Assembly: GCA_963780685.1 (NCBI GenBank)
Contig: CAWACZ010000012.1
Coordinates: forward strand, 195,238 to 259,237
Direction: 5' to 3'
DNA: 64,000 bases
Source of the DNA: an uncultured Acidobacteriota bacterium
Lineage (GTDB): Bacteria; Acidobacteriota; Vicinamibacteria; Vicinamibacterales; CAVVIG01
Shown: positions 38,331 to 54,908 of the stretch, piece after piece
Layout: every line of letters begins with the position of its first letter
Numbering within the stretch: the first letter of the stretch is position 1
Program-made: the position numbers and the translations under genes
Notes under the pieces: model-generated
What the model saw: only the letters and a program-made list of their open reading frames with translations
Told to the model about the DNA's origin: nothing
Databases searched by the model: none

Positions 38331-38400
38331 CGTAGAATTGTCAGCTCGCAGGTCGAGAGAAACGTTCAGAGGCCGTTGAATCTTGGAAAAGGTTGATCCC

Positions 38401-39069
38401 ATGTCGCTATCAGGCCAGATGCCGGTTCAGCCCGGAGAGCCCGCGCCCGACTTCGCCGTGTCGGCCGTGCACGAGGATCGGATGATTTCGTTGGCAGACT
38501 ACCGCGGAAGGACGCCGCTGCTGCTCGGCCTGTTCAGGGGCCTGTACTGCCCGTTCTGCCGGCGTGCGCTGGCCCAGATGGCCGTCTCGTCCGACCGCCT
38601 GAAATCGCTCGGCGTCGATTCGCTGGCCGTTGTCGGCACCGACGTGGAGAATGCGCGGCTTTATTTCAAGTTCAGACCGACGCGCATGGCGCTCGGCGCC
38701 GACCCGAATCTCGTCACCCACCGCTCGTACCGTGTGCCGCGGCCGGAGCCTACGTCCGAGTTGATGCAAGCGATGGCGAACACACAGATCAACCCGACTG
38801 GAGAGCTCCCGGCACCGCTGCCGGTGCCCGCCGCAGGGGCCGCCCTCAACGCGCTCGACGGCTATCAGAGCACGCCGGCCGATCAGCGGGACTTCGAGTC
38901 GGCGTTTACGCAGTTGAAAGGCCAGTTCCTGATCGACCGCGGCGGCGTCGTGCGGTGGGCCCACATCGAGGGCCAGGAGGGCCCCTCCGGTCTCGGCAAG
39001 TTCCCTTCGCACGACGAATTGATTGACGCGGCGAGTATCGTCATCGGCGGCACACGGGTCGGCACTTAG
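38401..39069 (+). CDS. AhpC/TSA-type peroxiredoxin-like protein (Cys form)
   Basis: MSLSGQMPVQPGEPAPDFAVSAV...RTPLLLGLFRGLYCPFCRRALAQM...FLIDRGGVVRWAHI. Confidence 0.8.
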   Translation: MSLSGQMPVQPGEPAPDFAVSAVHEDRMISLADYRGRTPLLLGLFRGLYCPFCRRALAQMAVSSDRLKSLGVDSLAVVGTDVENARLYFKFRPTRMALGADPNLVTHRSYRVPRPEPTSELMQAMANTQINPTGELPAPLPVPAAGAALNALDGYQSTPADQRDFESAFTQLKGQFLIDRGGVVRWAHIEGQEGPSGLGKFPSHDELIDAASIVIGGTRVGT

Positions 39070-39190: not shown

Positions 39191-39231
39191 TTGACATGCA
39201 CTAGTCAAGTAATCTATTGATTACTTGACTA
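39191..39231 (+). promoter_or_regulatory. TTGACA -35 box plus 30-bp perfect palindrome (13-4-13) overlapping the -10 region and the start codon of the ArsR-rhodanese gene
   Basis: TTGACA at 39191-39196. TAGTCAAGTAATC-TATT-GATTACTTGACTA spans 39202-39231, and its last base is the A of ATG 39231. Confidence 0.6.
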
Positions 39232-39977
39232 TGACCGATCCCCACCGAACCTTCAAGGACCGCCTCTACGGTCAGTTCGCTCGCCTCGGCAAGGCGCTCG
39301 CCAGCCCGCATCGCATCGAGATGCTCGAACTGCTCGCACAGAGCGAACGCACGGTCGATTCCCTGGCGACGGAGATGGGCTTGTCGCTGGCGAATGCTTC
39401 TCAGCATCTGCAAGCGCTGCGACAAGCCGCGCTGGTCGAAAGCCGCAAACAAGGCCTATTCGTCCACTACCGGCTCGTCGACCCGTCGGTCTTCGACCTC
39501 TGTGCCGCCCTGCACACGGTGGCCGAGCGACGTCTCGCCGACTTGGATCGCCTCGTGCGCGAGCACTTCGGGGACCGTTCCGACGCCGAGCCGGTGCGCA
39601 TGCGCGATCTGCTGGATCGGGCGCGGGCGAGCGACGTCATCATTCTCGACGCCCGGCCCGCAGCCGAGTACCAGGCGGGCCATATCGCCGGCGCGATTTC
39701 GGTTCCCATCGACCAGCTCCAGAAACGTCTGCGGTCGCTGCCAGTCGACAAGGAGTACGTGGCGTACTGCCGTGGCCCCTACTGTGTGTACGCCGATCGA
39801 GCGGTCGAACTCCTTCTAAAGAGTCGCCGCCGCGCCCGGCGTCTGCTCGAGGGATTTCCGGAGTGGCGCGCGGCGGGATTTCCCATTGCACGAGGGAGCG
39901 ACGCGCCGGCGGTGCCAGGACGGCCGCGACGGCGCGGTTCACGCCGTCCTCGAAAGCGCCTGCTGACGTCGGTTTGA
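39231..39977 (+). CDS. ArsR-family HTH regulator fused to a rhodanese domain
   Basis: FARLGKALASPHRIEMLELLAQSERTVDSLATEMGLSLANASQHLQALRQAALV (ArsR wHTH), then VIILDARPAAEYQAGHIAGAISVP...YVAYCRGPYCVYADRAV (rhodanese). Confidence 0.85.
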   Translation: MTDPHRTFKDRLYGQFARLGKALASPHRIEMLELLAQSERTVDSLATEMGLSLANASQHLQALRQAALVESRKQGLFVHYRLVDPSVFDLCAALHTVAERRLADLDRLVREHFGDRSDAEPVRMRDLLDRARASDVIILDARPAAEYQAGHIAGAISVPIDQLQKRLRSLPVDKEYVAYCRGPYCVYADRAVELLLKSRRRARRLLEGFPEWRAAGFPIARGSDAPAVPGRPRRRGSRRPRKRLLTSV

Positions 39978-40041: not shown

Positions 40042-40527
40042 ATGATGGAGAAAGCCGTGATGCGACGACGCCTCGAGGTCCAGGGGTTTCTGCTGGACGA
40101 TGTTGCGCTGCGACAGATCGGCAGGTGGCTGCGGTTCACCCCGGCTCTCTGCGCCACGGGCATCGCCATTGGGACTCTCCTCGCCTCTCCGTCGATGTTG
40201 TGGGCGCTTGCGGCAACCGCTGCTGCCGGCGCGCTGTTTCCCAGACATCCGTTTGATTTCCTCTACAACTTCGCTATTCGGTTCCTGACGAGGACGCAAC
40301 CACTTCCGGTCAATCGAGCTCCAAGACGGTTCGCGTGCGGCGTGGCGGCACTCTGGCTCGCTGGTACGGCGATGGCGTTCGAAGGAGGTCAGCCTGCGCT
40401 TGGCTACATCCTCGGAGGAGCGATAGTCGTCCTCGCCACTCTCGTCAGCTTGACGGATATCTGCATCCCTTCGGTTGTTTACCAGTTCCTGTTCGCGCGG
40501 CGCGACCGGAAGGTCGTACGCGTGTAG
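40042..40527 (+). CDS. DUF4395-like membrane protein
   Basis: 161 aa; VQGFLLDDVALRQIGRWLRFTPALCATGIAIGTLL...PFDFLYNFAIRFL...NRAPRRFACGVAALWLAG...LVSLTDICIPSVVY. Confidence 0.75.
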   Translation: MMEKAVMRRRLEVQGFLLDDVALRQIGRWLRFTPALCATGIAIGTLLASPSMLWALAATAAAGALFPRHPFDFLYNFAIRFLTRTQPLPVNRAPRRFACGVAALWLAGTAMAFEGGQPALGYILGGAIVVLATLVSLTDICIPSVVYQFLFARRDRKVVRV

Positions 40528-40560
40528 ATCGAAGCCCTGCACGAGAGGTGGAGGTGACAT

Positions 40561-41343
40561 GTGGCGATGACGTGCCCCGTTGATTTCGACACCGTGACGC
40601 TACGCGCCGAAATTCAGACGATGTATTCGCAGGTCGCCGCCACGCCCGAAGGCTCGTTCCACTTTCATCGTGGACCAGAGTACGCCGTTACCAGGCTCGG
40701 CTACGACGCGGCGGAGCTCGCCACTCTCCCCATCACGGTCACGTCGTCATTCGCGGGTGTTGGCAATCCTCACGCTATCAGGCCCATCGAGAAGGCAGCC
40801 GTCGTGCTCGACGTCGGCTGTGGATCTGGAACCGATCTACTCCTCGCTGCGCGGCATGTCGGACCTGCCGGCCGCGCGATTGGCGTGGACATGACCGAAG
40901 CAATGCGAGCACGAGCATCAGCGGGAGCCGTGCAATGCGGACTCGCTCATGTCGACGTGCGTGATGGCGATGCAACGCGCCTGCCGCTCGAAGATGCCAG
41001 CGTCGACGTGGTCATTTCGAACGGCGTGCTGAACCTCGTACCCGACAAACACAAAGCCATCGGCGAGATCGCCCGCGTCTTGAAGCGCGGCGGCGGTGTA
41101 CAGATTGCCGACATCGTGATCAAGGAGATCCTGCCGGAAAGCACCCTTCGCGACATCGATCTCTGGACCGGTTGAATCGCCGGCGCTCTGCTGGAAGCAG
41201 AGCTTGTCGACGCCTTTGCGGCGGCCGGCTTCGACGATGTGCGCATCGTCGCCCGATTCGATTGCTTCGCAGGAACGACCAAAGAGCGGACGGCGAGACG
41301 GTACGGCGTCGGCGGTGTGAATCTCGTGGCGTCGCGACGATAG
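40561..41343 (+). CDS. ArsM/UbiE-like SAM-dependent methyltransferase with in-frame UGA (candidate selenocysteine) at 41173-41175
   Basis: FHFHRGPEYA, SFAGVGNP, SAM motif VLDVGCGSGTD, VDVVISNGVLNLVPDK, then DLWTG-TGA-IAGALLEAELVDAFAAAGFDDVRIVARF...YGVGGVNLVASRR* in the same phase (783 nt = 261 codons). Homologs as I recall carry GCIAGA at this spot. Confidence 0.75.
41185..41203 (+). promoter_or_regulatory. Candidate bacterial SECIS hairpin for the methyltransferase UGA
   Basis: GCUCUGC-UGGAA-GCAGAGC: a perfect 7-bp stem with a GG-containing pentaloop, starting 9 nt after the UGA. Confidence 0.5.
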
Positions 41344-41377
41344 GCCCACCCGGCTATCTCGAAAGAGGAGGCTCATC

Positions 41378-41872
41378 ATGACAATGAAGGTAGCGATTCG
41401 ACGGTCCATTGCTCCCGCTCTGATCGTTGTCGTCACGACCATGCTTTCCGCGTGGGCCAGCCAGGCTGCGGCGCAAACGGCTCAGAAGACGCTGTACGAC
41501 CGGCTCGGGGGCGCGTACAGCATCGCGACGGTTGTGGACGACTTCATCGAGCGCTTGCTCGTCAACGCAACACTCAACGCCAATCCCGCCATCAACGCCG
41601 CGCGGGCACGAGTCCCGAAAGCAGGCTTGAAATTCCAAGTTACGGCGCTCGTGTGCGAGGTCACCGGTGGTCCATGCAGGTACACGGGCCGAGCGATGAA
41701 GGAGTCACATGACCATCTCAACATCACGCAGGCTGAGTGGGATGCAATGGTCGCAGATTTCAGACGGACATTAGAACAGTTCAAGGTACCGCAGCAGGAA
41801 CAGCAGGAATTGATCGCGATCGTCGGCAGCACGAAGAAGGACATCGTCAAGTCGGCGACCGCCAGCCGATAG
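41378..41872 (+). CDS. Truncated hemoglobin (group I-like) with an N-terminal signal peptide
   Basis: MTMKVAIRRSIAPALIVVVTTMLSAWASQAAA, then KTLYDRLGGAYSIATVVDDFIERLL...MKESHDHLNITQAEWDAMVADFRRTLEQFKVP. Confidence 0.8.
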   Translation: MTMKVAIRRSIAPALIVVVTTMLSAWASQAAAQTAQKTLYDRLGGAYSIATVVDDFIERLLVNATLNANPAINAARARVPKAGLKFQVTALVCEVTGGPCRYTGRAMKESHDHLNITQAEWDAMVADFRRTLEQFKVPQQEQQELIAIVGSTKKDIVKSATASR

Positions 41873-41885
41873 CACAGGTGCGATC

Positions 41886-42635
41886 ATGATTTTTCGACCT
41901 TTCTACTATTTCGACCTCGGCTGCGCCGCCTACCTCTTCGGCTGCGGCACGCTCGGCAAATGCGCAGTAGTAGACGCGCGCACCGACGACGTGGAGGCCT
42001 ATGCCGCTTTCGCGACCGCCAAGAACATGCACATTACGCACGTCATCGACACGCACGTCCATGCCGATCATCGATCGGGCGGGCCGGAGCTGGCCCGACG
42101 AACCGGAGCCAGCTACTGCCTGCACGAATCGGCGGACGTGAGGCTGCCATTCACGCCTCTGCAAGATGGACAACAGATCGAGTTGGGAAATACAAGGGTC
42201 ACCGTACTGCACACGCCGGGACATTCACCGGAAAGCATCTGCTTGGTCGTCACCGACCTCAGGCGAGGGCCAGCTCCCTGGTTTGTCCTGACGGGTGACA
42301 CGCTGTTTGTGGGAGCCGTCGGACGACCCGATCTTCCCGGCCATGCCGAGGAAAATGCCGGACAGCTGCACGCGAGTATTCACCAGAAGCTGCTGACCCT
42401 GCCCGGCGACGTGGAGATCTACCCGGGGCACTTCTCGGGCTCGGTGTGTGGCACCGGATTGAGCGGCAAACCGACGAGCACGATAGCGTTCGAACGACGC
42501 TGGAACCCGATGTTGTCGCTGGAGCAGAGCGCGTTCATTGCGGCACTCAGCGATGTACCGCCCAAACCCGAGGCCATGGAGCGCATCCTCGCGTCCAATC
42601 GTGGTCTTCGTGAGGAGACAGAGATCTCCGTATGA
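41886..42635 (+). CDS. MBL-fold hydrolase (glyoxalase II / persulfide-dioxygenase-like)
   Basis: YLFGCGTLGKCAVVDA...ITHVIDTHVHADHRSGG...VLHTPGHSPESICLVV...FTGDTLFVGAVGRPDLPG...IYPGHFSGSVCG. Confidence 0.85.
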   Translation: MIFRPFYYFDLGCAAYLFGCGTLGKCAVVDARTDDVEAYAAFATAKNMHITHVIDTHVHADHRSGGPELARRTGASYCLHESADVRLPFTPLQDGQQIELGNTRVTVLHTPGHSPESICLVVTDLRRGPAPWFVLTGDTLFVGAVGRPDLPGHAEENAGQLHASIHQKLLTLPGDVEIYPGHFSGSVCGTGLSGKPTSTIAFERRWNPMLSLEQSAFIAALSDVPPKPEAMERILASNRGLREETEISV

Positions 42636-43912
42636 TCGACGCCGTGGCGGCTCCTATTCAGATCCGCCTTGGCCTGCGCGAGAACGCCGCGCAATTCGCG
42701 CTGCTGGTCCTCGTCAACGCATTCGTTGGCGCGATGGTCGGCCTCGAGCGCAGCCTTCTCCCCGCCATCGCCGAGCACGACTTTCAGCTGGCTGCACGTA
42801 CAGCCGCGCTCTCGTTCATCGTAGTCTTCGGTCTGACCAAGGCGGCGACCAACTACGTCGCCGGCCGCCTCGCCGACCGTCTCGGACGCAAACAGATACT
42901 CATTGCCGGCTGGCTGGTCGCAGTGCCCGTCCCGTTCCTGCTGATGTGGGCGCCGAGTTGGGCGTGGATTCTGGTTGCGAACGGGCTGCTGGGCGTCAGT
43001 CAGGGATTCACCTGGTCGACGACCGTCATCATGAAGATCGATCTGGTTGGTCCGGCTCGCCGCGGCCTGGCGATGGGACTGAACGAGTTCGCCGGCTACG
43101 TCGCCGTCGCCGCGGCTGCGTTCGCCACGGGTGTCATTGCGGCGCGCACCGGTCTGCGGCCGCAACCGTTCTATCTGGGCGTCGCGTTTGTCGCGTTGGG
43201 CCTCGTCCTCTCGGCACTCGTTCGAGAGACGGCGCCGCACGCCGCATTGGAGGCACAGCAGCGCGGTTCGGCCCCAAGCCGCCTCGGCGCCCGAGAAGTC
43301 TTCTGGCGCACGACAGTTTCTGATCGCGACTTGTCTGCAGTGAGCCAGGCGGGTCTGGTGAACAACCTCAATGACGGGATGGCCTGGGGGCTCTTCCCAC
43401 TCTTCTTCGCCGCGGCAAGCATGGACTTCGCGCAAATCGGAGTGCTCGCCGCCATCTATCCGCTGACGTGGGGCGTGGGCCAGCTTGTGACGGGGGCCCT
43501 TTCCGACATGATTGGCCGCAAATGGCTCATCACCGGCGGGATGTGGATTCAGGCCGCAGCGATTGGTCTCGTCAGCGTCTCGACGGGGTTCGCGGGTTGC
43601 GCGGTCGGCGCCATCTTGCTTGGCGCCGGTACGGCGATGGTTTATCCAACGCTGCTCGCAGCGATCGGCGATGTGGCGCACCCGTCATGGCGGGCATCGG
43701 CCGTGGGCGTGTACAGATTGTGGCGAGATCTCGGCTATGCGATCGGCGCACTGTTGGCCGGCATCTGCGCCGACTGGTTGGGGCTGGCCGGCGCGATGCG
43801 AGTCGTGGCTGCCGTGACGCTCATCTCCGGCCTGGTGGTCGCGATCCGAATGGAAGAAACGCTGTCGCTCGGGAACCTCGGACACGCAGAACCCCTGAAC
43901 CCTGAACCTTGA
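42632..43912 (+). CDS. MFS transporter
   Basis: 426 aa, 12 predicted TM helices; GRLADRLGRKQILIAG motif. ATGA-type overlap with the MBL gene stop. Confidence 0.85.
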   Translation: MIDAVAAPIQIRLGLRENAAQFALLVLVNAFVGAMVGLERSLLPAIAEHDFQLAARTAALSFIVVFGLTKAATNYVAGRLADRLGRKQILIAGWLVAVPVPFLLMWAPSWAWILVANGLLGVSQGFTWSTTVIMKIDLVGPARRGLAMGLNEFAGYVAVAAAAFATGVIAARTGLRPQPFYLGVAFVALGLVLSALVRETAPHAALEAQQRGSAPSRLGAREVFWRTTVSDRDLSAVSQAGLVNNLNDGMAWGLFPLFFAAASMDFAQIGVLAAIYPLTWGVGQLVTGALSDMIGRKWLITGGMWIQAAAIGLVSVSTGFAGCAVGAILLGAGTAMVYPTLLAAIGDVAHPSWRASAVGVYRLWRDLGYAIGALLAGICADWLGLAGAMRVVAAVTLISGLVVAIRMEETLSLGNLGHAEPLNPEP

Positions 43913-43928
43913 ACCAGGAACCCGAGAG

Positions 43929-44334
43929 ATGCCCTGTTGCTCGACCTTCCAAGATGCAGCGGAACGGCAGTTCACCGAGAAGATTGCTCAACGAGATCTC
44001 ACCACCTATCGGCGGAACGGCGCGGGAGTCACGACTCGGCTGCTACGCGACGCGCTCGTCACGGCTGGGGCAACGAAACGGATCGCTCTTGGATGTCGGT
44101 GCCGGCATCGGCGCCCTGACGTTTGAGCTCCTCGAACTTGGCGTTGCGCGAGCGATCGCAGTCGAGGCTTCCGCGGCGTATGTAAGAGCGGCGTCCGAAG
44201 AGGCTGCGATCCCCGCAGTGGTACCGCCCGCCACCACCGCGGCCGGTCGCCCGGGCGTGCGGCGCGCGTCGGGGCCACCCGTAGCGGATCGGCCGGAAGC
44301 CTGGGGACGCGACCCGTGGAGCGGCGCGACGTGA
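43929..44334 (+). pseudogene. Class I SAM methyltransferase with N-terminal CC motif, frameshifted near 44075 and apparently truncated after about 44205
   Basis: MPCCSTFQDAAERQFTEKIAQRDLTTYRRNGAGVTTRLLRDALV, then in another phase GSLLDVGAGIGALTFELLELGVARAIAVEASAAYVRAASEEAA. No recognisable C-terminal half in any phase. Confidence 0.55.
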
Positions 44335-44338
44335 TCGG

Positions 44339-44887
44339 TCAACGAGGTGGTCGACGTCTGGCGACGCCGAGTTCGGCCAGCTTGGCTGCGACGGTCCGCC
44401 CGTGCGTCGCGGGGCTCACCTGTTTGTCGATATAGAGGATCCGGCCGTCGACGCCGATGTAGAAGGTCCAACGCGAAGCGAACGGTTGATCTTCATCAAC
44501 GACACCGTATGCCTTCGCGACGCTCTTGTCCGGATCGCTGAGCAGCGGATAGTCCACACCCAGGGACCGCGCGAAGGCCTGGTTGGCGTCCAGCTGGTCG
44601 ACGCTGGCGGCGAAATAGGCCACGTCGAACGCCCGAAAGTCGTCGCCACTCTCACGGAGTGACTTGCACTCGGCCGTTCAAGCGGGAGAGAACGCCTTCG
44701 CAAACCACGCGAGGACGACTGCCTGTTTCCCCTTGTAATCCGCAAGGGTGTACTGCTTCCCGTCAGACCCCCGCAGCGAGAACGAAGGGGCGACGTCACC
44801 CACCTTCAGTCCGCCTGCGGCAGTGACCGCTGTCGCCAACGCTACGGCCAAGGAAATCCAACCGGCCATCTTGGGTAAGACGCGCAT
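44339..44887 (-). CDS. Secreted peroxiredoxin/Bcp-like redoxin with in-frame UGA (candidate selenocysteine) at 44678-44680
   Basis: ORFs 44678..44887 and 44339..44623 share one phase. Joined read: signal peptide, GDVAPSFSLRGSDGKQYTLADYKGKQAVVLAWFAKAFSPA-TGA-TAECKSLRESGDDFRAFDVAYFAASVDQLDANQAFARSLGVDYPLLSDPDKSVAKAYGV. The peroxidatic Cys position (T/S-P-x-C) is the TGA. Confidence 0.8.
44645..44663 (-). promoter_or_regulatory. Candidate SECIS hairpin for the redoxin UGA
   Basis: Minus strand GUCACUC-CGUGA-GAGUGGC: a 7-bp stem including one G-U pair, starting 14 nt after the UGA. Confidence 0.45.
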
Positions 44888-44919
44888 GGGGCGTTACGAT
44901 ACCACTATCCGAGCTAGTC

Positions 44920-47588
44920 ATGTTAGTGGGGCCTGGCTCTCAAATTGGCGCCTATGAGGTGGTCGCTGCGATCGGCGCAGGCGGCATGGGCGAGGTGTAT
45001 CGCGCGCGCGATTCCAGGCTGAACCGCGACGTGGCGTTGAAGATCATCCGTCAGCCCCTGACCGACGCGGAGCACCTCGCCCGATTTCGCCGCGAAGCGC
45101 AGGTACTTGCCGCGCTCAATCACCCGCACGTCGCCAGCATTTACGAACTCGACGAAGCCGACGGCATGCTCTTCCTGGTGATGGAGCTCGTTCCCGGGCA
45201 GACGCTCGGCGATCTGCTGGCCAGCCGGCCCGCTCGATCTCTGGAAGTCACCGAAGCCCTCACAATCGCGCGGCAAATCGCCGAAGCCCTCGAAACAGCG
45301 CACGACAAGGGTATCGTCCACCGCGATCTCAAGCCAGCCAATATCAGGGTCACGCCGGACGGCGTCGTGAAGGTCCTGGACTTTGGTCTCGCGAAAGCGC
45401 TGTCGGGCGAGGCCGCCGAAGTGAATCTGACGAACTCGCCGACCCTTACCGTCGCTGCAACCAGTATCGGCATGATTCTCGGCACTGCGGGGTACATGTC
45501 TCCGGAACAGGCAAAGGGCCAGGTCGTCGACCGACGCACGGACGTCTTCGCATTTGGCTGCGTACTGTTACGAGATGCTCGCAGGACGGCCAGCGTTCAA
45601 GGGTGAGACGCTGGCGGAAATTCTGGCCGGCGTTCTGAAAACGGATCCGGATTGGAGTCGCCTGCCAGCCGGCACCTCGACGAACGTGACGCGCCTCCTG
45701 AACCGCTGTCTCCAAAAGGACATCAAGGCACGGCTGCGAGACATGGGCGATGCCCGGCTCGAGATCGAAGAGGCTCTCAATCGGCCTGCCATGACGACCG
45801 AGCTCGAGGCAAGCCCGACTGCCGCACGCAGCCTGCAAACGGAGTGGCCGCGGATGCTCGCGGTGGCGGCGGCGGGAGCGGTGGCGGGTGCGATTGCGAT
45901 GTGGAGCCTGAGGTCCGAGCCGCAGGTGCCAACGCTCCCCAGCGGACGCTTCGTCATTGCGCTGCCTGCGAACGAGAGACTCGCAGGGTTGGATTTTCCG
46001 TCGGTCGCGATCGCACCCGATGGATCGGTCATGGCGTACGTCGGGTCACGGAGCGGTCAATCACAGTTGTTCCTCCGGCCGATGAACGGCCTGGAGACAA
46101 CCGCCATTGACGGAACGACCAATGCGATTGCCCCGTTCTTCTCGCCGGACGGTCGATGGCTCGCGTTCTTTGCGGACGGCCAGCTCAAGAAAGTGCCGAC
46201 CGCGGGTGGGTCTCCGGTGACGCTCACCGAGGCGCGGGTCGGCGTCGGTGGCAGTTGGGGCGCCGGCGACACGATTGTGTTCGCAGCCGGAACGGGATCG
46301 GCACTTTCACGCGTGTCCGCCAATGGCGGCATGCCGGAGCGCGTGACGACCCTGGCGGCGGACAAAGGAGAGTTCAGCCATCGCTGGCCCGAGCTGCTGC
46401 CGGACGGCAAGACAGTCATCTACACCGTCGGTACCGCTCGGTCACTGGGACGACGCGCAGATCGTCGCGCAGAAGCTGGGCTCGCCAGAGCGTTCGGTGC
46501 TCGTGCAGGGCGGGACGAATCCTCGCTACCTCGCGTCAGGCCATCTGCTCTATGCGCGAGGCGGCGCAATCATGGCCGTGCCTTTCGATCCAGCCAGTCT
46601 CAAAACCTCAGGTACGCCCATCCGACTCCTGGAAAACGTCCTCCAATCGTTCGACGGCGCCGCACAACTGAGCGTGTCGCCATTGGGCACAGCGGTCTAC
46701 GTCACGGGTGAATTCGAATCGAACCGGCGGCGCCTCACAACCGTCGATCGCAGCGGCGTGGCCACGCCGTTTGCCGCTCCTCTTCAAGCTTACCGAGAGC
46801 CGCGACTGTCGCCCGACGGTCGAAAACTCCTGGTGACCATCGAAGGCTCGACCGAAGATCTCTGGGTCTACGACATGACCGCCGGGACGCTGAACCAGCT
46901 GACGTTCGGCGTCAACGCGGCCCTGCCAATTTGGACGCCCGATAGCCAACGCGTGACGTTCAGCTCGAACGCGGGCGGAACGCCAAATCTGTTTTGGACG
47001 ACGATCGGTCAGCAGAGGGCGGCGGAACGGTTGGCGACCAGCGACAACATCCAGTTGCCGGGGTCGTGGTCTCCCGACGGACGTACGCTGGCGTTCGTCG
47101 AACGACACCCCAGCACGGGCCGCGACATCTGGCTTCTGCGGCTGGACGAAGACCGCGAGGCCCGGCCGTTCCTCACTTCGCCATTCGACGAAAGCGCGCC
47201 GCGCTTCTCACCGGATGGCCGTTGGATCGCGCACGTCTCCAACGAATCAGGACGTGACGAAGTGTTCGTTCGGTCTGTGGCTGACTCCGGCCGCAAACTG
47301 CAGCTGTCGGACGGCGGTGGGACCGAGCCGGTCTGGGCGCGAGATGGAAGCGAGATCTTCTATCGTGTCGGCACCAGGCTGATGGCCCTGCTGATGGCCG
47401 ACGGCCGTCCGGCTCGCGGCGCGCAGCCCCGTCAGCTCTTCGAAGGCGAGTTCGAAAAAGGCTCGATGGATGCCGCCGACTACGACGTGACGCCGGACAA
47501 CCAACGCTTCGTGATGATCGGCGGCAGTGGCACATCGACCGATCACGCAACCATTCACGTCCTCATCAATTGGCGTCTTATTCCTTGA
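44920..47588 (+). CDS. Ser/Thr protein kinase with TM segment and TolB-like WD40 beta-propeller repeats; apparent 1-nt insertions near 45568 and 46440
   Basis: GAYEVVAAIGAGGMGEVYRA...HRDLKPANI...DFGLAK...GTAGYMSPEQ. After the TT at 45568-45569 it reads YEMLAGRPAFKG. PD40-like repeats follow: FFSPDGRWLAF, RLSPDGRKLL, WSPDGRTLAF, RFSPDGRWIAHVS. Confidence 0.8.
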
Positions 47589-47925
47589 CCTTTGCCTTAT
47601 ACGGAGAAGGCCCCTGGGGCCCCGGCGCGGTGTCGACCGCGCCAATCAGACTCTGCACCGTGGCCTCGCGCGGGTCGTAGGTCACGACCGCCTCGTGATT
47701 CTCGAGCGTCACCCGGGCGCGCGTGACGCCTTTGACCTCTAACAGTGCGGACCGCACTGCGGCAATGCAGCCCTCTCATATCATTCCGTCAACGACGAGC
47801 GTCACCGTCGCGGACGCCGAATCCGCCGTGGGCTCCTGTTGGGCCGGTGATTGACCGGCCCCGCATCCGGCAACCAGCAGCCCGACGAACACCAACAACT
47901 CTCGCCGTGAAGGTGGCAGTCTCAT
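47578..47925 (-). CDS. HMA (heavy-metal-associated) domain lipoprotein with in-frame UGA replacing the first Cys of GMxCxxC (candidate selenocysteine, tca 47776-47778)
   Basis: SD AGGAGG 8 nt before ATG 47925. MRLPPSRRELLVFVGLLVAGC (lipobox) GAGQSPAQQEPTADSASATVTLVVDGMI-TGA-EGCIAAVRSALLEVKGVTRARVTLENHEAVVTYDPREATVQSLIGAVDTAPGPQGPSPYKAKVKE* = 116 codons in one phase. Both halves are too short or M-less to appear in the ORF track. Confidence 0.75.
47743..47759 (-). promoter_or_regulatory. Candidate SECIS hairpin for the HMA UGA
   Basis: Minus strand CAGUGC-GGUCC-GCACUG: a 6-7 bp perfect stem with a GGU-containing loop, starting 16 nt after the UGA. Confidence 0.5.
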
Positions 47926-48051
47926 GGGGAGCCCTCCTGCGAAAACCGCCGACCGGACGATCGCTCCGGCGTGTCGTCCGTGATGGGGCTAATCCTACTC
48001 AATTCTCGCGACCTACAGGCGCATCGGCTTCAAAAGGATCGTCATTCACGC

Positions 48052-51000
48052 TCAGCCGCCGAGGCGGCCATATTTCAGGTAAAGAGTGGGCACGACGAAC
48101 ATGTTCAGTAACGTCGACGTCACTAGGCCGAATAGGATGACGATCGCCATCGGCGTCTGAATCTCACTACCCGCCCTGCCGCCGCCCACTGCCAGCGGAA
48201 TCAGCGCCAGTCCTGCGGCCATGGCGGTCATGACGATCGGAATGAGACGTTCGCACGTGCCCCGCTCGATAGCTTCGCGGAAGTCGGTCACGCCTTCCTG
48301 CTCCATCAGATGACGAACGTGCGAAACGAGCATGATGCCATTGCGCGTCGCAATCCCGAATAACGTGATGAAACCGATCATCGACGCCACGCTCAGGACG
48401 CCGCCCGACAGGTAAACGCCAACGACCCCGCCAATCAGCGCCAGTGGCAGGTTCACCATCACGAGGAGCGCGTCGCGCGCTTGCCCGAACGCGAGCACGA
48501 GCAGCATGAAGACTCCTACGACGACGCCTGCCCCGAGGACCAGCAGCCGACGTGACGCGCTTTGCTCGCTCTCGAACTGCCCGCCATATTCGACCCGATA
48601 GCCGGCCGGCAGCGAGACGGCAGCGGCAATCGTCGCTCGCATGTCCTCGACGACGCTCCCCAGGTCCCGGCCGGCGACGTTGCTCGAGATCACGATACGA
48701 CGCTGCACGTTTTCCCGCTGGATCATGTTCGGTCCGCGTTCCCGCCGGACATCGGCAAGCACTCGAATAGGGACCGGCCCGCTATTCGGTGTGTCGATGG
48801 GCAACCCTGCCAGACGGTCGAAATCGGCCTGCGCCGCTGGATCAAACTTCACCACGATGTCGAACGCCGTGGCTCGATCGAAGACGCGACCAACACGCGC
48901 TCCGGCAAAGCTCGTCTCTACCGCCTCGGCGACGTCATTGGGCCGCAGTCCGTAGCGGCCGATGGCCGTCCGATTCAGTACGAATCGCACGACCGGGACT
49001 TCTGTCTGCTGCTCCAGCGACACGTCGACGGCGCCCGGGATTCGAACCATGACATCCCGGACCTGCTCGCCGAGCCGTCGCAGCGTCAGCAAATCATCGC
49101 CAAAGATCTTCACCGCGATGTTGGCTCGCGTGCCCGACAGCATGTGGTCGATGCGATGCGAGATAGGCTGACCGATTGTCACGTTCGTGCCTGGGAGAGC
49201 CGAGAATCCCCGGCGGAGCTCCGCCAGCAACACCCCACGCGGGCGGCCGCCCTCCCGCAGTCCGACATCGATCTCGGCTGCTTCGACGCCCTGTACGTGT
49301 TCGTCATACTCGGCCCGGCCGGTACGGCGTGCGGTCGCCACGACCTCCGGCTGTGCCAGCAGGATCTGTTCGACACGGCGGCCAATCTCGTCCGATTTTG
49401 GAAGCGATGTACCCGGGAGTGTATTCGCCTGGACGGTCAACGACCCCTCATTGAATTCGGGAAGAAACGCGCTGCCCATGCGTGTCGTCGCCACGAGGGC
49501 GGCTGCCAGCAGGCTGCCCGCCACGACCACGATCAAACGCGGCCGATCGAGAGCCAGGGGCAGCGCTTTCGCAAACCGCGCCTTGAGCCACCGCGTCAGC
49601 CAGCCGTCGTGCCCCTGCAGGATCGACTTCGCGTTCGGCAAGAACGCGTAGGACAGCGCCGGTGTGACGATGATCGCCACACCCAGTGACGCCAGCAGCG
49701 CCACGATGTACGCGAATGCGAGCGGCGTCAGGAGCCGGCCTTCCACCCCGGACAGCCCGAAGACTGGCATGAATACGAGAACGATGATGACGGTCGCGAA
49801 CACAATCGAGGTCCGGATCTCGAGTGTCGCATCACACACGACGGCAGCAGCGGCCTGCTGCTCGCCCGGCGGCCTAACCGCGTTCTCGCGCAACCGTCGG
49901 ACTACGTTTTCCACATCGATGATCGCATCGTCGACCAACGCACCGATTGCGATGGCCATTCCTCCAAGCGTCATCGTGTTGATGGTCGCATCGAACGCCC
50001 GTAATACGAGAACGGCGGCGGCCAGCGACAACGGCATGGCGGTCAGCGTAATCGCCGCTGCCCGGAGGTTGGCGAGAAACAACACCACGATGAGGATGAC
50101 GAGCAGCGCGCCGTCGCGCAGGGCGTTGACGACGTTGTGGATCGCGACCTCGATGAAGTCAGCTTGCCGGAAGATGCGGCGATCGATCGTCATTCCGCGC
50201 GACAGCTCCCGTTGAATCGCATCGAGCTCGCGATCGAGTCGCGCGGTCAATTCAACAGTGTTGGCTCCTGGCTGTTTCTGTACGCCGACGATGACCGCGG
50301 GCTTCCCGTTGCGTGAACCCTCGCCCCGTTTCAGCGCACCACCTACGCGCACCTCGGCGATATCGCGGACCAACACCGAGCGGTCGCCGTGCAGTGTCAC
50401 GACGGTGTCGCCGATGTCGGCCGGCGTGCGCGCGCGCCCGATCGTCTCCAGCACGTACTCCTGCGGACCCTCCACATATATGCCAGCCGACGTGTTCTGG
50501 CTCGCGCCCCGCACGGCGTTCAGCAGCTCGTTGACACTGATGTTGTTGGCGCGGAGCTGATCTGGATGGACCACGACCTGAAACTGGCGTTCGGACCCGC
50601 CAATGGGTGTCACCTGCGACACACCGGCCACTGCGAGCAGCCGCCGTCGGACCAGGGTGTCCGCCATTGTGCGAAGAGTCAGCGGATCGTCAGCGTCCGA
50701 CGAAATCGCAAAAAACAGAATCTCGCCCATGATCGACGAGATTGGCGCCAGGATGGGCCGCTCGGCTTGTGGGGGGAGGCTACCGCCGACCAGCGCCAGC
50801 TTCTCGGCAACCACCTGACGCGCTCGAAAAATGTCGGTGCCCCAGTCGAATTCCACCCAGACGACCGCAATGCCAACGGCAGTTGCAGAGCGGACGCGCC
50901 GTACGTCGGACGCGCCGTTGATAGCGGCTTCGATCGGAAAGGTCACGAGCGTTTCCATCTCCTCGGGCGCCATGCCGCGTCCTTCGATGAGAATCGTGAC

Positions 51001-51135
51001 CGTCGGCGCCGTCAAATCAGGAAAGACGTCGACCGGCATGGCTCGGGCAGTCCACATACCAGCGCCGGCGAGCACGATCGACAGCGCCAGAACCATCCAG
51101 TGATGATCAATCGACCATTGGATCAGCTTTTTCAT
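48052..51135 (-). CDS. CusA/CzcA-family heavy-metal efflux RND transporter
   Basis: 1027 aa intact; MKKLIQWSIDHHWMVLALSIVLAGAGMW...DVFPDLTAPTV; TM4 motif AIAIGALVDDAIIDVENV; typical 12-TM HME-RND architecture. Confidence 0.95.
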   Translation of the reverse strand: MKKLIQWSIDHHWMVLALSIVLAGAGMWTARAMPVDVFPDLTAPTVTILIEGRGMAPEEMETLVTFPIEAAINGASDVRRVRSATAVGIAVVWVEFDWGTDIFRARQVVAEKLALVGGSLPPQAERPILAPISSIMGEILFFAISSDADDPLTLRTMADTLVRRRLLAVAGVSQVTPIGGSERQFQVVVHPDQLRANNISVNELLNAVRGASQNTSAGIYVEGPQEYVLETIGRARTPADIGDTVVTLHGDRSVLVRDIAEVRVGGALKRGEGSRNGKPAVIVGVQKQPGANTVELTARLDRELDAIQRELSRGMTIDRRIFRQADFIEVAIHNVVNALRDGALLVILIVVLFLANLRAAAITLTAMPLSLAAAVLVLRAFDATINTMTLGGMAIAIGALVDDAIIDVENVVRRLRENAVRPPGEQQAAAAVVCDATLEIRTSIVFATVIIVLVFMPVFGLSGVEGRLLTPLAFAYIVALLASLGVAIIVTPALSYAFLPNAKSILQGHDGWLTRWLKARFAKALPLALDRPRLIVVVAGSLLAAALVATTRMGSAFLPEFNEGSLTVQANTLPGTSLPKSDEIGRRVEQILLAQPEVVATARRTGRAEYDEHVQGVEAAEIDVGLREGGRPRGVLLAELRRGFSALPGTNVTIGQPISHRIDHMLSGTRANIAVKIFGDDLLTLRRLGEQVRDVMVRIPGAVDVSLEQQTEVPVVRFVLNRTAIGRYGLRPNDVAEAVETSFAGARVGRVFDRATAFDIVVKFDPAAQADFDRLAGLPIDTPNSGPVPIRVLADVRRERGPNMIQRENVQRRIVISSNVAGRDLGSVVEDMRATIAAAVSLPAGYRVEYGGQFESEQSASRRLLVLGAGVVVGVFMLLVLAFGQARDALLVMVNLPLALIGGVVGVYLSGGVLSVASMIGFITLFGIATRNGIMLVSHVRHLMEQEGVTDFREAIERGTCERLIPIVMTAMAAGLALIPLAVGGGRAGSEIQTPMAIVILFGLVTSTLLNMFVVPTLYLKYGRLGG

Positions 51136-51159
51136 TGATTACTCCGGGGCCCTGCCCAT

Positions 51160-52704
51160 CTAGTGAACATGGCCTTCGGCGGGCAGCCCAGACGCCGCGG
51201 ACGCTAAGTGCACCTCGTATGCGCCCCGGGTGACGACCCGCTCCCCGGACTTCACACCGCTGGTGATTCCCACCAGGTCGCCATCTTTCGCGGCAATCTC
51301 GATGAACCGGCGCACAAACTTCTCACCTCCAACCTGTACGAACACGTATGGACGGCCGGCCTCCATCAGCACCGCCGCACTCGGGACGCCTGGGACTCGC
51401 TGACGCTCGCGCGCGTACAGGACTGCCGTGCCAGCCTGACCGACCAGCAATTGCTCTCCGGGATTTTCGATCTCCATCTGAAGCCCGAGCGCCTGGGTTC
51501 CTGGATGGATGACGCCGGAATCATGCAGGTGGCGCGGCTCGAGCATGAACGGCGAGGCGATTCCCGGAATTTCGAGCGCGAGTCCGCCGGCCTGGCGCGC
51601 CACTACCACCTCGGCCGACGGAACCTGGACTTCCAACTCGACGCGGTCCGTCCGCACGATCTTGAAGAGCGGAGTCCCTTCATCATAAGAAGCGCCCAGC
51701 GTCGCGTTTACCTCCGCCAATCGACCAGCGATTGGCGCACGCAGCACGAACGCGTTGCCGGCGGCCGCACCGCCACCCGCACGGAGCGTTTCGTCACGTT
51801 GCGCGAGCCGCGCCTCGGCCGCTCGCAGCCGGGCCTCTGCCACAGTGATGGTGCGGCGTGCGTCGTCCACTCGGCGAGCCGGCACCGCCCGCTCGGCGAG
51901 GAGCCGCTCCGCCCGCGCCAGCTCGACGCGCGCGGCTTCGAACGCAGCGCGCGCCTCTGCAACGTCCGCCTCGAGCGTGGCGCGGTCGGCACCCGTGGCG
52001 AGCCGCGGCTCCAGACGTCCAAGGACCTGCCCCGCGCGGACGCGCGTGCCAATCGACAGCAACACGTCGGTGGTGAACCGGCCGGCCGCCGGCGCCGCCA
52101 CCATCGCCTCACCGCCCGGCAGCGGATGCACCGTCGCCGGGACCCGGATTGACGCACGTACCTCCACCTCCTGCACAGGCGTCGTCGCGAATGGATTGGT
52201 CCATTGCTGTTCCTTGAGATACGCGATCGCTGTAGCCGCTTCCGGGGCTGCCTGCTCGCCGCTGGCTCTGGCGGCCCGCTCATCGGCAAAGACCGTGACC
52301 GACCCAAGGTCATGTCGATCGACGAGTCCCGGCACCTCGAGAATCAGCGTCCACCGGTACCGGCCGGCTGGAGGCGGAACGGCTTCAATGCGAAACGCTC
52401 CGGGCCGGGACGGTCGCGGACCCGTCAAGACTGTCGGCTGACCGCCAGCCTCCGGTGTGAACTCGACCCTGGCCTGGCCGTCGGCGACGGGCGCAAAGTC
52501 GGCGAGCCTCGTCAAGTGCACCGCGAAAAGCGCGGAGCGGCCCGCGACGAGCGGTGGGTATTCCATGAACAGCTCGGTCTTGTCGGTCCAATGCGTCACG
52601 TCAAGCGTCGTTACAGCTCCAGGACTCTGAACCGGTGCGGCCCGTCCGCAACCGGCGAAACCAAGCGCACCGAGCAACAGGAGAGCCGTCAGTTTTGCGG
52701 TCAT
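51160..52704 (-). CDS. Efflux RND periplasmic adaptor (CusB/CzcB-like) lipoprotein with long N-terminal extension
   Basis: MTAKLTALLLLGALGFAGCG lipobox; coiled-coil LEADVAEARAAFEAARVELARAERLLAERAVPARRVDDARRTITVAEARLRAAEARL; barrel/MP domains. ATGA overlap with the TolC stop. Confidence 0.9.
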   Translation of the reverse strand: MTAKLTALLLLGALGFAGCGRAAPVQSPGAVTTLDVTHWTDKTELFMEYPPLVAGRSALFAVHLTRLADFAPVADGQARVEFTPEAGGQPTVLTGPRPSRPGAFRIEAVPPPAGRYRWTLILEVPGLVDRHDLGSVTVFADERAARASGEQAAPEAATAIAYLKEQQWTNPFATTPVQEVEVRASIRVPATVHPLPGGEAMVAAPAAGRFTTDVLLSIGTRVRAGQVLGRLEPRLATGADRATLEADVAEARAAFEAARVELARAERLLAERAVPARRVDDARRTITVAEARLRAAEARLAQRDETLRAGGGAAAGNAFVLRAPIAGRLAEVNATLGASYDEGTPLFKIVRTDRVELEVQVPSAEVVVARQAGGLALEIPGIASPFMLEPRHLHDSGVIHPGTQALGLQMEIENPGEQLLVGQAGTAVLYARERQRVPGVPSAAVLMEAGRPYVFVQVGGEKFVRRFIEIAAKDGDLVGITSGVKSGERVVTRGAYEVHLASAASGLPAEGHVH

Positions 52705-53927
52705 TGTGGAATCTCCCAACCACTCGCAAATGTCAGCTCGATCTCAGCTCGTCGTACCGCGAGGTCGAGGGTTGCCTGACGCACGCGCGCGGAGGCACCA
52801 ATCCGATAGGCGTCGAGCAACTCCAAGATGCCCCGTTCACCGGCGTCGTAGCTCACCTGCGCAATCCGTTCAATCTGGGCGGCGCTGTTCAAGGCGTCGG
52901 ACCGATACCGCTCGGCCACCATGCGTCGCTGAATGACCGCCTCGCGAAGCGCGGCCACCTCTCCGCGAAGGACGAGACGAAATGACGAAGCACGCGAGTT
53001 CGCCTGAGCCATCCGTGCCTGGGCGAGCGCGCGTTCCGCTGCCGATCGATCGAACAGCGGGATCGTCGCGCGGACGGTGATGACGCTGCCGACATCTCCA
53101 CCGCCGAGGTTCGACGACTTGGTGCCGGCGACGATCTCCGGCTCGGGCACGCGCCGACGGTCGGCGGCCTGAGCCGCGAACTCCGCCGACTCGAGGTCGT
53201 GCCGCAGCGCGACGAGCTCACCGCGCGTCGATTCCGCGTGCCCGAGTAGTGTCTCGAGTGCCGGGATCGCGGCCGCGGACGGCCCGCCGGGCAGCGCCAC
53301 GAGCAGAGAGGCGTCCGTGCCGTCGCCGAAGTAGCTCGCCAGCCTCGCCTGGGCGCTTGCTCGTTCGATGACCACCAGCGCCCGGTCGGCCTCGATGTCG
53401 AGCGCCTCGCGCTCGGCACGAAGACGATCGAATCCCGCGGCATCACCAGCGTTCTCACGTTTCGCCAGGGCGTCCGCCAGTTCGCGAAGACAATCCCATG
53501 CGCTCGTCAGCTCACGCTCCCGCGCCTGGGCCGCCACGAGGTCTGCGAAGGCGAGTCGCAGCTCCGTGCGAAGGCGCCGGACCCCATCATCGGCACGGCT
53601 CGAGCTGGCCGACACCAGCGCCTCCGCTGAATGCACGTCCAGCCCGCGGCGTCCGGTGATGGGCAGCACCTGCGACACCGTCGTGAGGTACTCGGTGACT
53701 CCCGCCACCGACTCGCGTGTCAGGCCCGGTTGCGGATTTGGCCATCGCCCTGCAGTCAGGACATCAACCCGCGCCATGTCAACAGCCGTGCGGATTGCCC
53801 GCACGCGAGGACTGTCTGACGAGAGTCGCGCCAAGGCATCGGACTCGGTCAACGTCAACGTTTGCGCGCCGACACCGAGCGGCATCCACACCACCGCCAG
53901 GGCGGCGCAGAGCACATCTCTGCGCAT
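52701..53927 (-). CDS. TolC-family outer-membrane efflux protein
   Basis: 408 aa; signal peptide MRRDVLCAALAVVWMPLGVGAQ; two repeats of a coiled-coil/beta pattern typical of OEP. Confidence 0.9.
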   Translation of the reverse strand: MRRDVLCAALAVVWMPLGVGAQTLTLTESDALARLSSDSPRVRAIRTAVDMARVDVLTAGRWPNPQPGLTRESVAGVTEYLTTVSQVLPITGRRGLDVHSAEALVSASSSRADDGVRRLRTELRLAFADLVAAQARERELTSAWDCLRELADALAKRENAGDAAGFDRLRAEREALDIEADRALVVIERASAQARLASYFGDGTDASLLVALPGGPSAAAIPALETLLGHAESTRGELVALRHDLESAEFAAQAADRRRVPEPEIVAGTKSSNLGGGDVGSVITVRATIPLFDRSAAERALAQARMAQANSRASSFRLVLRGEVAALREAVIQRRMVAERYRSDALNSAAQIERIAQVSYDAGERGILELLDAYRIGASARVRQATLDLAVRRAEIELTFASGWEIPQ

Positions 53928-53983: not shown

Positions 53984-54373
53984 TCAGGCGGATAAACGAG
54001 GAGGGCCGCGGAGGGAAAGACAGGCTCTCGGAGGACCGTGTGGGGGCGCCGTATCGTAATCAGGTGGCGATGCCCACTCGGCCAACGCAGGGACCGATTC
54101 AGGCCATGCGGTCGCCGGCAAGGCCGGGACCGTCAACTGGTAACCGGGCTGGAACCTTGCCACCCCATCCAGCCAGACGACGTGGTCATCGTCGTCGGCA
54201 AGCTCGGGGTGGTCGCGGTCGTGCGCCGCGATTGAATGAAGCTGCACATGTCGATGCACAGCCGCCGGTGCATGGTCGTCATGCTCGTGAAGGTGCGCGG
54301 GTGCCATCGCGGAGAGCGCGATGTATGGAGCCAGAAGCACGCTCACGGCGAGCCGGCCGAAGGAAGGTTTCAC
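53984..54373 (-). CDS. His/Asp-rich exported hypothetical protein (possible metal-binding accessory)
   Basis: GTG 54373 VKPSFGRLAVSVLLAPYIALSAMAPAHLHEHDDHAPAAVHRHVQLHSIAAHDRDHPELADDDDHVVW...PPHGPPRACLSLRGPP. Sits directly upstream of the TolC gene. Confidence 0.5.
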   Translation of the reverse strand: MKPSFGRLAVSVLLAPYIALSAMAPAHLHEHDDHAPAAVHRHVQLHSIAAHDRDHPELADDDDHVVWLDGVARFQPGYQLTVPALPATAWPESVPALAEWASPPDYDTAPPHGPPRACLSLRGPPRLSA

Positions 54374-54443
54374 GCTTCCGTGATTATCGCCACCGGGCGA
54401 ACGCCTCGTCAAATGGCGCTGCTTTGTCAGGCGCCGAGCCGAA

Positions 54444-54908
54444 TCACCGAAGTGAACGCTCGACGGTGAAGTTCCGCATCGTCCCTCGGGCGTCCACGTA
54501 CGCAATGTCCGCTGACACCGAGCGCGGATACACACCGCACGGGAACTGCGGCTGAAAACTGAACGGCCTCGACGTCCCGGCTACGACGAGCGTCGAACCG
54601 AACTGGCGCGTCAACCCCGGCTTGGGCACGGACACCATCGGCCCGCCCAAAGACGAGCCGTCGATCAATTGGATGGTGACTCGATCGACGTCCACGGTTT
54701 CGAATGCCGAGATGACGATGGTAAACGGGAACGTCACGTTCGGATTGCCGACACAGTCGTTGGGCGAAAAGAAAGGCGGCTGACTGATGGTGGCCGCGAC
54801 GGCCGGCGATGGCGCAAAGACGACAGGCACGCCCGTGCGCACGGCATCGTCATCGCACGCGGACAGGGCGAACGCGAGCACGGCACACGCGATTGTCGGA
54901 CGGAGCAT
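54444..54908 (-). CDS. Hypothetical lipoprotein, first gene of the RND operon
   Basis: MLRPTIACAVLAFALSACDDD lipobox, followed by a beta-rich 150-aa body. No family recognised. Confidence 0.55.
   Translation of the reverse strand: MLRPTIACAVLAFALSACDDDAVRTGVPVVFAPSPAVAATISQPPFFSPNDCVGNPNVTFPFTIVISAFETVDVDRVTIQLIDGSSLGGPMVSVPKPGLTRQFGSTLVVAGTSRPFSFQPQFPCGVYPRSVSADIAYVDARGTMRNFTVERSLR

Follow-up and report, generated by a model that had tools for sequence, protein, structure and literature searches.

A 64,000-nucleotide stretch of contig CAWACZ010000012.1, from an uncultured Acidobacteriota bacterium of the Vicinamibacterales and analysed here over its whole length (the window), holds three neighbouring genes that each contain exactly one in-frame TGA in the window translation. 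They encode an S-adenosylmethionine (SAM)-dependent methyltransferase of the ArsM lineage, a secreted peroxiredoxin and an exported heavy-metal-associated (HMA) lipoprotein, and their three TGAs are very probably selenocysteine (Sec) codons. Each TGA aligns with a cysteine of homologous proteins, is conserved in relatives, precedes a coding sequence under purifying selection and is followed by a conserved or covarying hairpin, from which we infer the insertion of Sec. A first-pass annotation of this DNA had located the three TGAs and proposed recoding rather than truncation. We find the codons at the same positions, one per gene, and recoding is supported by the match of Sec and Cys columns, by TGA conservation, by selection, by the hairpins and by the normal use of TGA as a stop. 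Pfam assigns the three products to the SAM methyltransferase, AhpC-TSA/Redoxin and HMA families, respectively. The features discussed are collected in Table 1.

Table 1. Position of the predicted selenoprotein genes, their candidate selenocysteine insertion sequence (SECIS) elements and the neighbouring genes in the window; aa, amino acids; nt, nucleotides; bp, base pairs; U, Sec.
Feature	Position	Strand	Description
ArsR-family helix-turn-helix and rhodanese regulator	39225-39977	+	Pfam; upstream of methyltransferase cassette
Predicted selenoprotein gene 1, SAM-dependent methyltransferase of ArsM lineage	40561-41343	+	260 aa, U = residue 205
UGA read as Sec (probable), methyltransferase	41173-41175	+	CmArsM Cys224 position (PDB alignment)
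Candidate SECIS hairpin, methyltransferase	41185-41203	+	8-bp stem GCUCUGCU/AGCAGAGC, GGA loop, 9 nt past UGA
MBL-fold hydrolase	41886-42635	+	Pfam; after methyltransferase
MFS transporter	42632-43912	+	Pfam; after MBL gene
Predicted selenoprotein gene 2, secreted BCP/PrxQ-type peroxiredoxin	44339-44887	-	182 aa, U = residue 70
Candidate SECIS element, peroxiredoxin	44626-44680	-	Upper hairpin and lower helix that includes the UGA itself
Upper hairpin, peroxiredoxin	44645-44663	-	GUCACUC-CGUGA-GAGUGGC, 14 nt past UGA
UGA read as Sec (probable), peroxiredoxin	44678-44680	-	Peroxidatic-Cys position
Ser/Thr kinase with TolB/Tricorn-like beta-propeller	44920-47588	+	Between peroxiredoxin and HMA genes
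Predicted selenoprotein gene 3, exported HMA lipoprotein	47578-47925	-	115 aa, site GMI-U-EGC
Candidate SECIS hairpin, HMA	47742-47760	-	G-CAGUGCG-GUC-CGCACUG-U, 15 nt past UGA
UGA read as Sec (probable), HMA	47776-47778	-	First Cys of GMxCxxC metal-binding motif
RND pump	48052-51135	-	Pfam ACR_tran
CusCBA-like efflux operon	48052-53927	-	Directly upstream of HMA gene, same strand
Membrane-fusion protein	51160-52719	-	Pfam HlyD_3/HlyD_D23
Outer-membrane efflux protein (OEP)	52701-53927	-	Pfam OEP

The methyltransferase gene starts at a GTG at 40561 (an ATG at 40567 is the alternative) and stops at a TAG at 41341-41343. Read through the TGA, it encodes DIDLWTG-U-IAGALLEAEL, and the predicted Sec-spanning peptide is DIDLWTG-U-IAGALLEAELVDAFAAAGFDDVR. 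The product matches Pfam Methyltransf_31, Methyltransf_11 and Methyltransf_25 and has a Rossmann domain for SAM binding, of the ArsM/UbiE type. In its alignment with the ArsM crystal structures 5evj and 4fr0, the TGA falls on Cys224 of CmArsM. Nearly all of the 120 nearest database homologues (72-85% identity) are 204-aa products that end in DLWTG at this very codon, and the fragments held in public protein sets are 202-204 aa long. The DNA of the relatives, taken from ENA long-read metagenome-assembled genomes (MAGs), the NCBI assembly GCA_003222675.1 and JGI, has the TGA as well, and reading continues in frame through a conserved UIAGALLEAEL…FDCFAGT.KE… to a normal stop. A wider scan with one genome per species gave 80 loci. 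The Sec column is occupied by TGA in 30 distinct sequences, spread over Acidobacteriota, Myxococcota, Gemmatimonadota, Chloroflexota/Dehalococcoidia, Acidimicrobiia, Planctomycetota and one Alcaligenaceae MAG, and by TGC or TGT in 38 more distant ArsM-type sequences, including those of archaea, Bipolaricaulota, Bacteroidota and Desulfobacteraceae. One homologue on a short contig (P0004) has Arg in this column (LWTGRIAG), and the Arg codon CGA is a one-nucleotide neighbour of TGA.

In the peroxiredoxin, the sequence around the TGA reads AWFAKAFSPA-U-TAECKSLRESGD, with the motif SPA-U-TAEC. Pfam AhpC-TSA (PF00578) is found with an E-value of 6e-31; the protein combines the AhpC/TSA thioredoxin fold with the (P)xxx(T/S)xxC peroxidatic motif and has an N-terminal signal peptide, read by eye. 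Among 12 full-length homologues (57-74% identity), 11 have Cys in the U column, within FTPGCTAEC. A homologue on a short contig (P0121) has Trp there (GGWTAEC), TGG being a one-nucleotide neighbour of TGA; both this Trp and the Arg of P0004 could be real substitutions or errors. At the DNA level, the TGA is kept in nine related loci (L001, L006, L007, L009, L019, L037, L091, L092 and L096) and is present in 10 distinct coding sequences from independent assemblies. Public sets hold fragments of 68-69 and 89 aa.

The HMA protein reads VTLVVDGMI-U-EGCIAAVRS around its TGA and matches Pfam HMA (PF00403) with an E-value of 2.8e-12. It has the HMA ferredoxin-like domain with a GMxCxxC site of the CopZ/MerP type, preceded by a leader in which an RR motif and a lipobox (LVAGC) were read by eye, with no predictor. 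The metal-binding domains of ATP7B align with it such that U falls on the first Cys of GMxCxxC and the second Cys is kept; MerP is also among the matches. The codon is TGA (GM[TIV]-U-xx-C) in every relative for which DNA was available, namely L001, L006-L010, L019, L037 and 13 soil-metagenome loci at 45-64% identity, or 21 distinct coding sequences from independent assemblies. No Cys form of the gene was found among the recovered relatives. All 63 protein matches are C-terminal fragments, and for the whole protein public sets hold pieces of 43-46 aa plus 68-69 aa. The first-pass annotation had held that each TGA sits where its family carries an essential Cys, and had proposed an alignment check; with this check run, the U/C column holds in all three families.

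Downstream of the TGA, dN is 0.05-0.42 and dS 0.47-1.6 across the three genes, and the resulting dN/dS of about 0.06-0.46 indicates purifying selection. The relatives' DNA came from independent assemblies in NCBI MAGs, JGI, ENA and Logan. It had been noted from the window that the frame is unchanged past each TGA and that family-typical residues continue to a normal stop; the read-through is conserved in the relatives as well. These data bear directly on the reading that the TGAs are genuine stops, caused by nonsense mutation or sequencing error, in pseudogenes or truncated genes. The window does contain damaged genes (two frameshifts in the kinase gene, and the remnant of a methyltransferase gene at 43929-44334), and gene callers and public databases treat the three products as truncated. 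However, in dozens of independent assemblies, which come from different projects and phyla, the codon is likewise TGA; the TGA always replaces a functional Cys, the sequence after it is in frame and under purifying selection, and an in-frame TGA cannot arise by the indel error mode. Genuine stops are effectively refuted by this conservation, and we give them almost no weight.

The expectation that gene callers would split or miss these genes is borne out, as public protein sets hold only fragments of all three. Public annotations also call fragments with ATG or GTG starts just after the TGA in HMA relatives, which would fit two separately translated open reading frames (ORFs), the downstream part being expressed from an internal start. 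However, the starts called in the HMA gene are not the same in all relatives and lie within the metal-binding motif or the first helix, and the halves share one frame in every case, with no spacer between them. Moreover, neither half is a complete fold: the division runs through the CxxC site, the peroxiredoxin active site and the C-terminal lobe of the methyltransferase. Separate translation of the halves is exceedingly improbable.

Analysis of the RNA downstream of the TGAs points to SECIS elements in all three genes. GC hairpins starting 9-16 nt after each TGA had been proposed, and in each gene we find one with a stem of 7-8 bp, a distance of 9-15 nt and a G-containing loop. A hairpin of this type follows only 44 of the 1619 TGA trinucleotides in the window (2.7%), and its occurrence after 3/3 candidate TGAs has a p of about 2e-5 if the three are independent. 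The methyltransferase hairpin is paired in 96% of alignment cells over 20 distinct sequences. Compensatory double changes are seen in three of its eight pairs (U-A to G-C, G-C to C-G and U-A to C-G), one of which couples a Leu-to-Pro replacement to a synonymous GAA-to-GAG change. The observed covariation values were reached by 0/500 shuffles, and shifted registers of the hairpin fall to 29-54% pairing. Synonymous-codon identity is 77% within the hairpin versus 46% elsewhere. A divergent Sec branch of the methyltransferase (AWSD-U-IAGAVWER) is formed by L043 and L049, from an Alcaligenaceae MAG and a Planctomycetota MAG. Its hairpins, GGAAC-GGUC-GUUCC and GGAGC-GGUC-GCUCC, lie slightly further downstream, and the two copies differ by one compensatory pair.

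The peroxiredoxin element folds with a z of -2.0. Its upper hairpin is identical in 8/8 distinct sequences and its lower helix has one compensatory pair; codons for the same residue are 100% identical in the hairpin versus 59% elsewhere in the gene. In the HMA gene, the relatives share the element CAGUGC[G/A]-GUC-[C/U]GCACUG, paired in 94% of cells over 12 distinct sequences. Its closing pair changes from G-C to A-U in four sequences, where Arg-to-Gln is combined with a synonymous TCC-to-TCT change, and one A-U pair also becomes G-U. The minimum-free-energy hairpin of this gene (stem 47749-47773) was rejected in favour of the one conserved across relatives. Rfam, searched over the window with gathering thresholds and over 40500-48000 with E-values up to 10, gave nothing relevant; it has no general model of bacterial SECIS elements to test against.

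The three hairpins resemble the SECIS of the fdhF type from E. coli in lying immediately 3' of the UGA inside the coding sequence and in having a G that opens the loop; the distance from UGA to loop is 17-23 nt in the window. They differ from it in their gene-specific stems, the absence of an evident bulged U and, in the main methyltransferase element, a loop of 3 nt. The fdhF upper stem-loop, which we take to be GGUUGCAGGUCUGCACC, is presumably similar to the HMA hairpin (GUGC[G/A]GUC[C/U]GCAC) and to the GGUC loop of L043 and L049.

TGA is the commonest ordinary stop in the window and ends most ordinary ORFs. A genome-wide reassignment of the codon is therefore rejected. This stop use also argues against read-through by something other than Sec, that is, insertion of Trp, Cys or Gly by a suppressor or near-cognate tRNA, or of Cys on tRNA(Sec) when selenium is scarce. 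The single homologues with Trp (P0121) or Arg (P0004) at the Sec column, both one-nucleotide neighbours of TGA, could be taken in its favour. However, the recoded sites are specifically Cys positions, and each has a conserved hairpin that general suppression would not need. Furthermore, a dedicated Sec machinery lies close to the methyltransferase gene in one relative, the Acidobacteriota MAG MFD02242.bin.2.257 (L033). It comprises a tRNA-SeC with anticodon tca (14349-14444, minus strand) and a selB gene (14579-16507, plus strand) whose 643-aa product has GTP_EFTU, SelB beta-barrel and SelB winged-helix domains, both 3.6-4 kb from a TGA-containing copy of the methyltransferase gene. A DUF169 gene adjoins them (region 13534-16507). 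Read-through without Sec is very unlikely in our view, and L033 shows that members of the phylum carrying the methyltransferase gene decode Sec, which is no proof for the organism of the window. Apart from L033, neither tRNA-Sec nor SelB was found in the 1.47 Mb of fetched loci (ARAGORN and tblastn with the L033 SelB).

Several observations weigh against Sec decoding at the three sites. None of selA, selB, selC and selD was found within the 64-kb window, where ARAGORN finds no tRNA. The top NCBIfam matches of the methyltransferase and the HMA protein are selenoprotein models (ArsM_AhpD_UU, ArsM_DUF2284_UU, MTase_UXPK_star and UxxU_metal_bind), and the curated cut-off of such models is reached by 0/3 proteins. 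The hairpin evidence is uneven: the upper hairpin of the peroxiredoxin is invariant, which speaks for conservation and gives no covariation, and the HMA hairpin, where a single pair clearly covaries, is the weakest element. In the window, the 60 nt after the HMA TGA fold no better than shuffled sequences (z = -0.4) and prefer a competing hairpin. In L006, L007, L008, L019 and L037 the HMA hairpin is different, namely shorter, shifted and weaker (CCCG-GUC-CGGG). Finally, nearby window genes carry real indel damage, which implies some local gene decay or assembly error.

No further selenoprotein gene was retained. The whole window was scanned for adjacent coding-like segments that could be paired across an in-frame TGA, and the candidates at 3-995, 17617-18804, 52986-53819, 53996-54469 and 55596-57893 were rejected as two separate genes or antisense noise.

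The methyltransferase had been described as ArsM-like. Its ArsM lineage stands; however, the protein should not be read as an arsenite methyltransferase. Of the three ArsM cysteine positions compared, two are replaced in the window protein: the equivalent of Cys174 is Gly (ISNGVLN aligned with ISNCVxN in the PDB alignment) and that of Cys72 is Val (FAGVGNP, against FWGCGNP in Chlamydomonas ArsM, 5evj). ArsM requires at least three of the four cysteines Cys44, Cys72, Cys174 and Cys224 of CmArsM (PMC5552862), and in the window protein only the position of Cys224 is kept, as Sec. Its score against the ArsM model NF008823 is 202.5 bits for a cut-off of 263, and assignment to ArsM was rejected on both counts. 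The loss extends to the clade: the Cys72 and Cys174 equivalents are missing in the 30 distinct Sec-clade sequences (FAG[VIT]GNP, ISNGV[LI]N), where Cys reaches at most 73% in any column besides the Sec column, whereas the Cys clade keeps three Cys columns at 97-100% (GCGNP, SNCVIN and Cys224). Since the other ArsM cysteines are gone, the Sec-clade enzyme is probably not a canonical arsenite methyltransferase, and the label 'arsenite methyltransferase' on the 204-aa fragments is doubtful. This matters where arsM counts serve as a proxy for arsenic methylation. The clade may have exchanged a three-cysteine As(III) site for one selenol. The window protein would methylate a soft metalloid or chalcogen substrate in a selenol-dependent reaction; this substrate may, but need not, be arsenite.

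Recoding and all three family types are already known from the literature (PMC13188914, PMC2398784). In a 2026 review of the prokaryotic selenoproteome, the experimentally verified families include 'Arsenite methyltransferase, UxxG' and 'Peroxiredoxin, TxxU', and the predicted ones include 'Metal-binding protein NF041115, UxxU', 'Cation-transporting ATPase, UxxC' and several selenoproteins that are ArsM fusions (PMC13188914). An ArsM-type selenoprotein was already reported in the Global Ocean Sampling (GOS) metagenomes (PMC2398784), and a 2016 count found it in 39 bacterial genomes (PMC5029168). The window methyltransferase shares fold, lineage and the U-x-x-G motif (here U-I-A-G, at the Cys224 position) with the arsenite methyltransferase selenoprotein of the NF008823 type. 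It differs from this type and from the related selenoprotein models NF047649, NF041537 and NF041536 in scoring under all cut-offs (210 vs 510, 202.5 vs 263 and 183 vs 460) and in having a single Sec without an AhpD, DUF2284 or UXPK extension. The loss of Cys72 and Cys174 is a difference from CmArsM and the Cys clade.

The peroxiredoxin shares the AhpC/TSA fold and the Sec at the peroxidatic position with known peroxiredoxin selenoproteins (TxxU; PrxU type). It is distinct from the PrxU type in being BCP/PrxQ-like, with a signal peptide, a U-x3-C spacing and S-x-x-U instead of T-x-x-U, and scores 47.9 bits against PrxU (NF040737), below the cut-off of 270. Likewise, the HMA protein has the fold, and the Sec in GMxCxxC, of known HMA-type selenoproteins (NF041115 UxxU, the ATPase UxxC domain and the MerT/CopZ fusion NF045683). 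In contrast to these, it is a stand-alone exported lipoprotein with one Sec (UxxC) and neither an ATPase domain nor a MerT fusion. Its second motif position is TGC (U-E-G-C), which makes one Sec rather than UxxU, and its NF041115 score of 58.5 is below the cut-off of 95; assignment to that family was rejected on these two grounds.

Insertion of Sec would follow the established bacterial pathway. The mRNA hairpin 9-15 nt past each UGA would act as the SECIS, to which SelB-GTP-Sec-tRNA(Sec) would bind, delivering selenocysteine at the UGA in place of termination, and the ribosome would then proceed to the normal stop. The chemistry and substrates that we propose for the three proteins are likewise predictions from sequence. 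In the methyltransferase, one selenol would stand beside the methyl donor at the former substrate-binding position of Cys224. With no other ArsM cysteine left, the likely substrate is a soft metalloid or chalcogen species bound through one Se-X bond; it need not be arsenite. In the peroxiredoxin, Sec would be the peroxidatic residue, probably resolved by the Cys four residues on (U-T-A-E-C). The HMA protein would be an exported, lipid-anchored metallochaperone, with the Sec and Cys of its U-x-x-C site as ligands of a soft metal such as Cu(I), Ag(I) or Hg(II).

The first-pass annotation had also seen in this region an island of redox and metal genes. The genes are linked in relatives too, so their clustering is no accident of the contig. 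The HMA gene is convergent with an orthologous kinase gene wherever the flank is available (the window, L001, L006-L010, L019, L037, L091-L094, L096 and L098), the C-terminal half of the kinase being 47-81% identical. The gene of the Sec-peroxiredoxin (Sec-Prx) is separated from the HMA gene by the kinase gene in the window, L001, L006, L007, L009, L019, L037, L091 and L096. In L010 (1-605, with a gap of about 40 nt) and L092 (1333-2505) it immediately precedes the HMA gene in the same orientation, which suggests that the two are co-transcribed there. The Sec-methyltransferase is found within 10 kb in the window, L001, L006, L007, L019, L037 and L095, but not in most other relatives. Given this pattern, the linkage of Prx, HMA and kinase looks functional and that of the methyltransferase looser.

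Adjacent selenoprotein genes are also a feature of known clusters, such as frhA-frhD-hdrA and the metagenomic Prx/SelW and Prx-like/AhpD-like pairs (PMC13188914, PMC2398784), and PMC13188914 has a section on selenoprotein operons. The present arrangement differs in that Sec-Prx and Sec-HMA flank or adjoin a Ser/Thr kinase, sometimes with a Sec-methyltransferase cassette. We found no description of a single-Sec UxxC HMA lipoprotein, of a Prx-kinase-HMA module or of a systematic loss of ArsM cysteines in the Sec clade. The last two of these, the conserved Sec-Prx/kinase/Sec-HMA module and the cysteine loss, may be new details.

Two linked readings go further, and we consider them speculative and, taken together, rather doubtful: that the widespread Sec 'ArsM' clade may not be arsenite methyltransferases, and that Sec-Prx and Sec-HMA may be a functional pair in the periplasm, as they stand beside one orthologous kinase in all relatives with enough flank. 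For the former, the cassette context (ArsR-rhodanese or LysR, MBL, and MFS or YeeE-type transporters) suggests methylation of sulfur or selenium species or another soft substrate. If the latter is true, the pair would be an undescribed selenium-based redox and metal module of the envelope, and the conserved arrangement offers a testable hypothesis of a functional link.

These findings leave the understanding of Sec decoding unchanged and hold no surprise for the specialist. Their consequence is for annotation: public sets contain, by the thousand, '204-aa methyltransferases' and 'CopZ' fragments of 60-70 aa, which would be systematically mis-annotated halves of selenoproteins, and the window is a clean example for correcting the annotation of soil Acidobacteriota MAGs. 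It also suggests that abundant soil bacteria of the Vicinamibacteria type use selenium in exported peroxide- and metal-handling proteins.

The frame breaks reported elsewhere in the window are genuine, as seen in the kinase gene, which is split over three frames by two frameshifts (ORFs 44920-45606, 45554-46711 and 46497-47588). Its orthologues in relatives are single ORFs of 879-895 aa, which points to long-read indel error or a recent pseudogene. One of the breaks, near 45570, looks as if a T had been added in ctgttacgag. Upstream of the HMA gene, a CusCBA-like operon encodes an OEP, a membrane-fusion protein and an RND pump, and the HMA gene is its last gene in the window; this adjacency was not seen in the relatives examined.

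Around the methyltransferase, the end of the ArsR-rhodanese gene and the beginning of the Sec-methyltransferase gene overlap in L001 and L003, whereas a DUF4395 gene intervenes in the window. The order MBL-MFS after the methyltransferase is the same in L001 and L003-L005, and the neighbours in L002 are a LysR gene, two Sulf_transp genes of the YeeE/YedE type and an MBL gene. A Bac_globin gene with an apparent N-terminal signal peptide (41378-41872, plus strand) is located between the Sec-methyltransferase and MBL genes of the window and is absent from the corresponding position in L001 and L003-L005. The segment 43929-44334 (plus strand) is an apparent remnant of a second methyltransferase gene, frameshifted near 44085. 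Its 3' portion appears to be missing ahead of the end of the peroxiredoxin gene, and its first 65 aa have no Pfam match; at this place after the MFS gene, L003-L005 encode an intact Methyltransf_25 protein of 225 aa. Just upstream of the ArsR-rhodanese gene, an AhpC/TSA-family gene (38383-39066, plus strand) encodes 228 aa, with the domain over residues 17-192.

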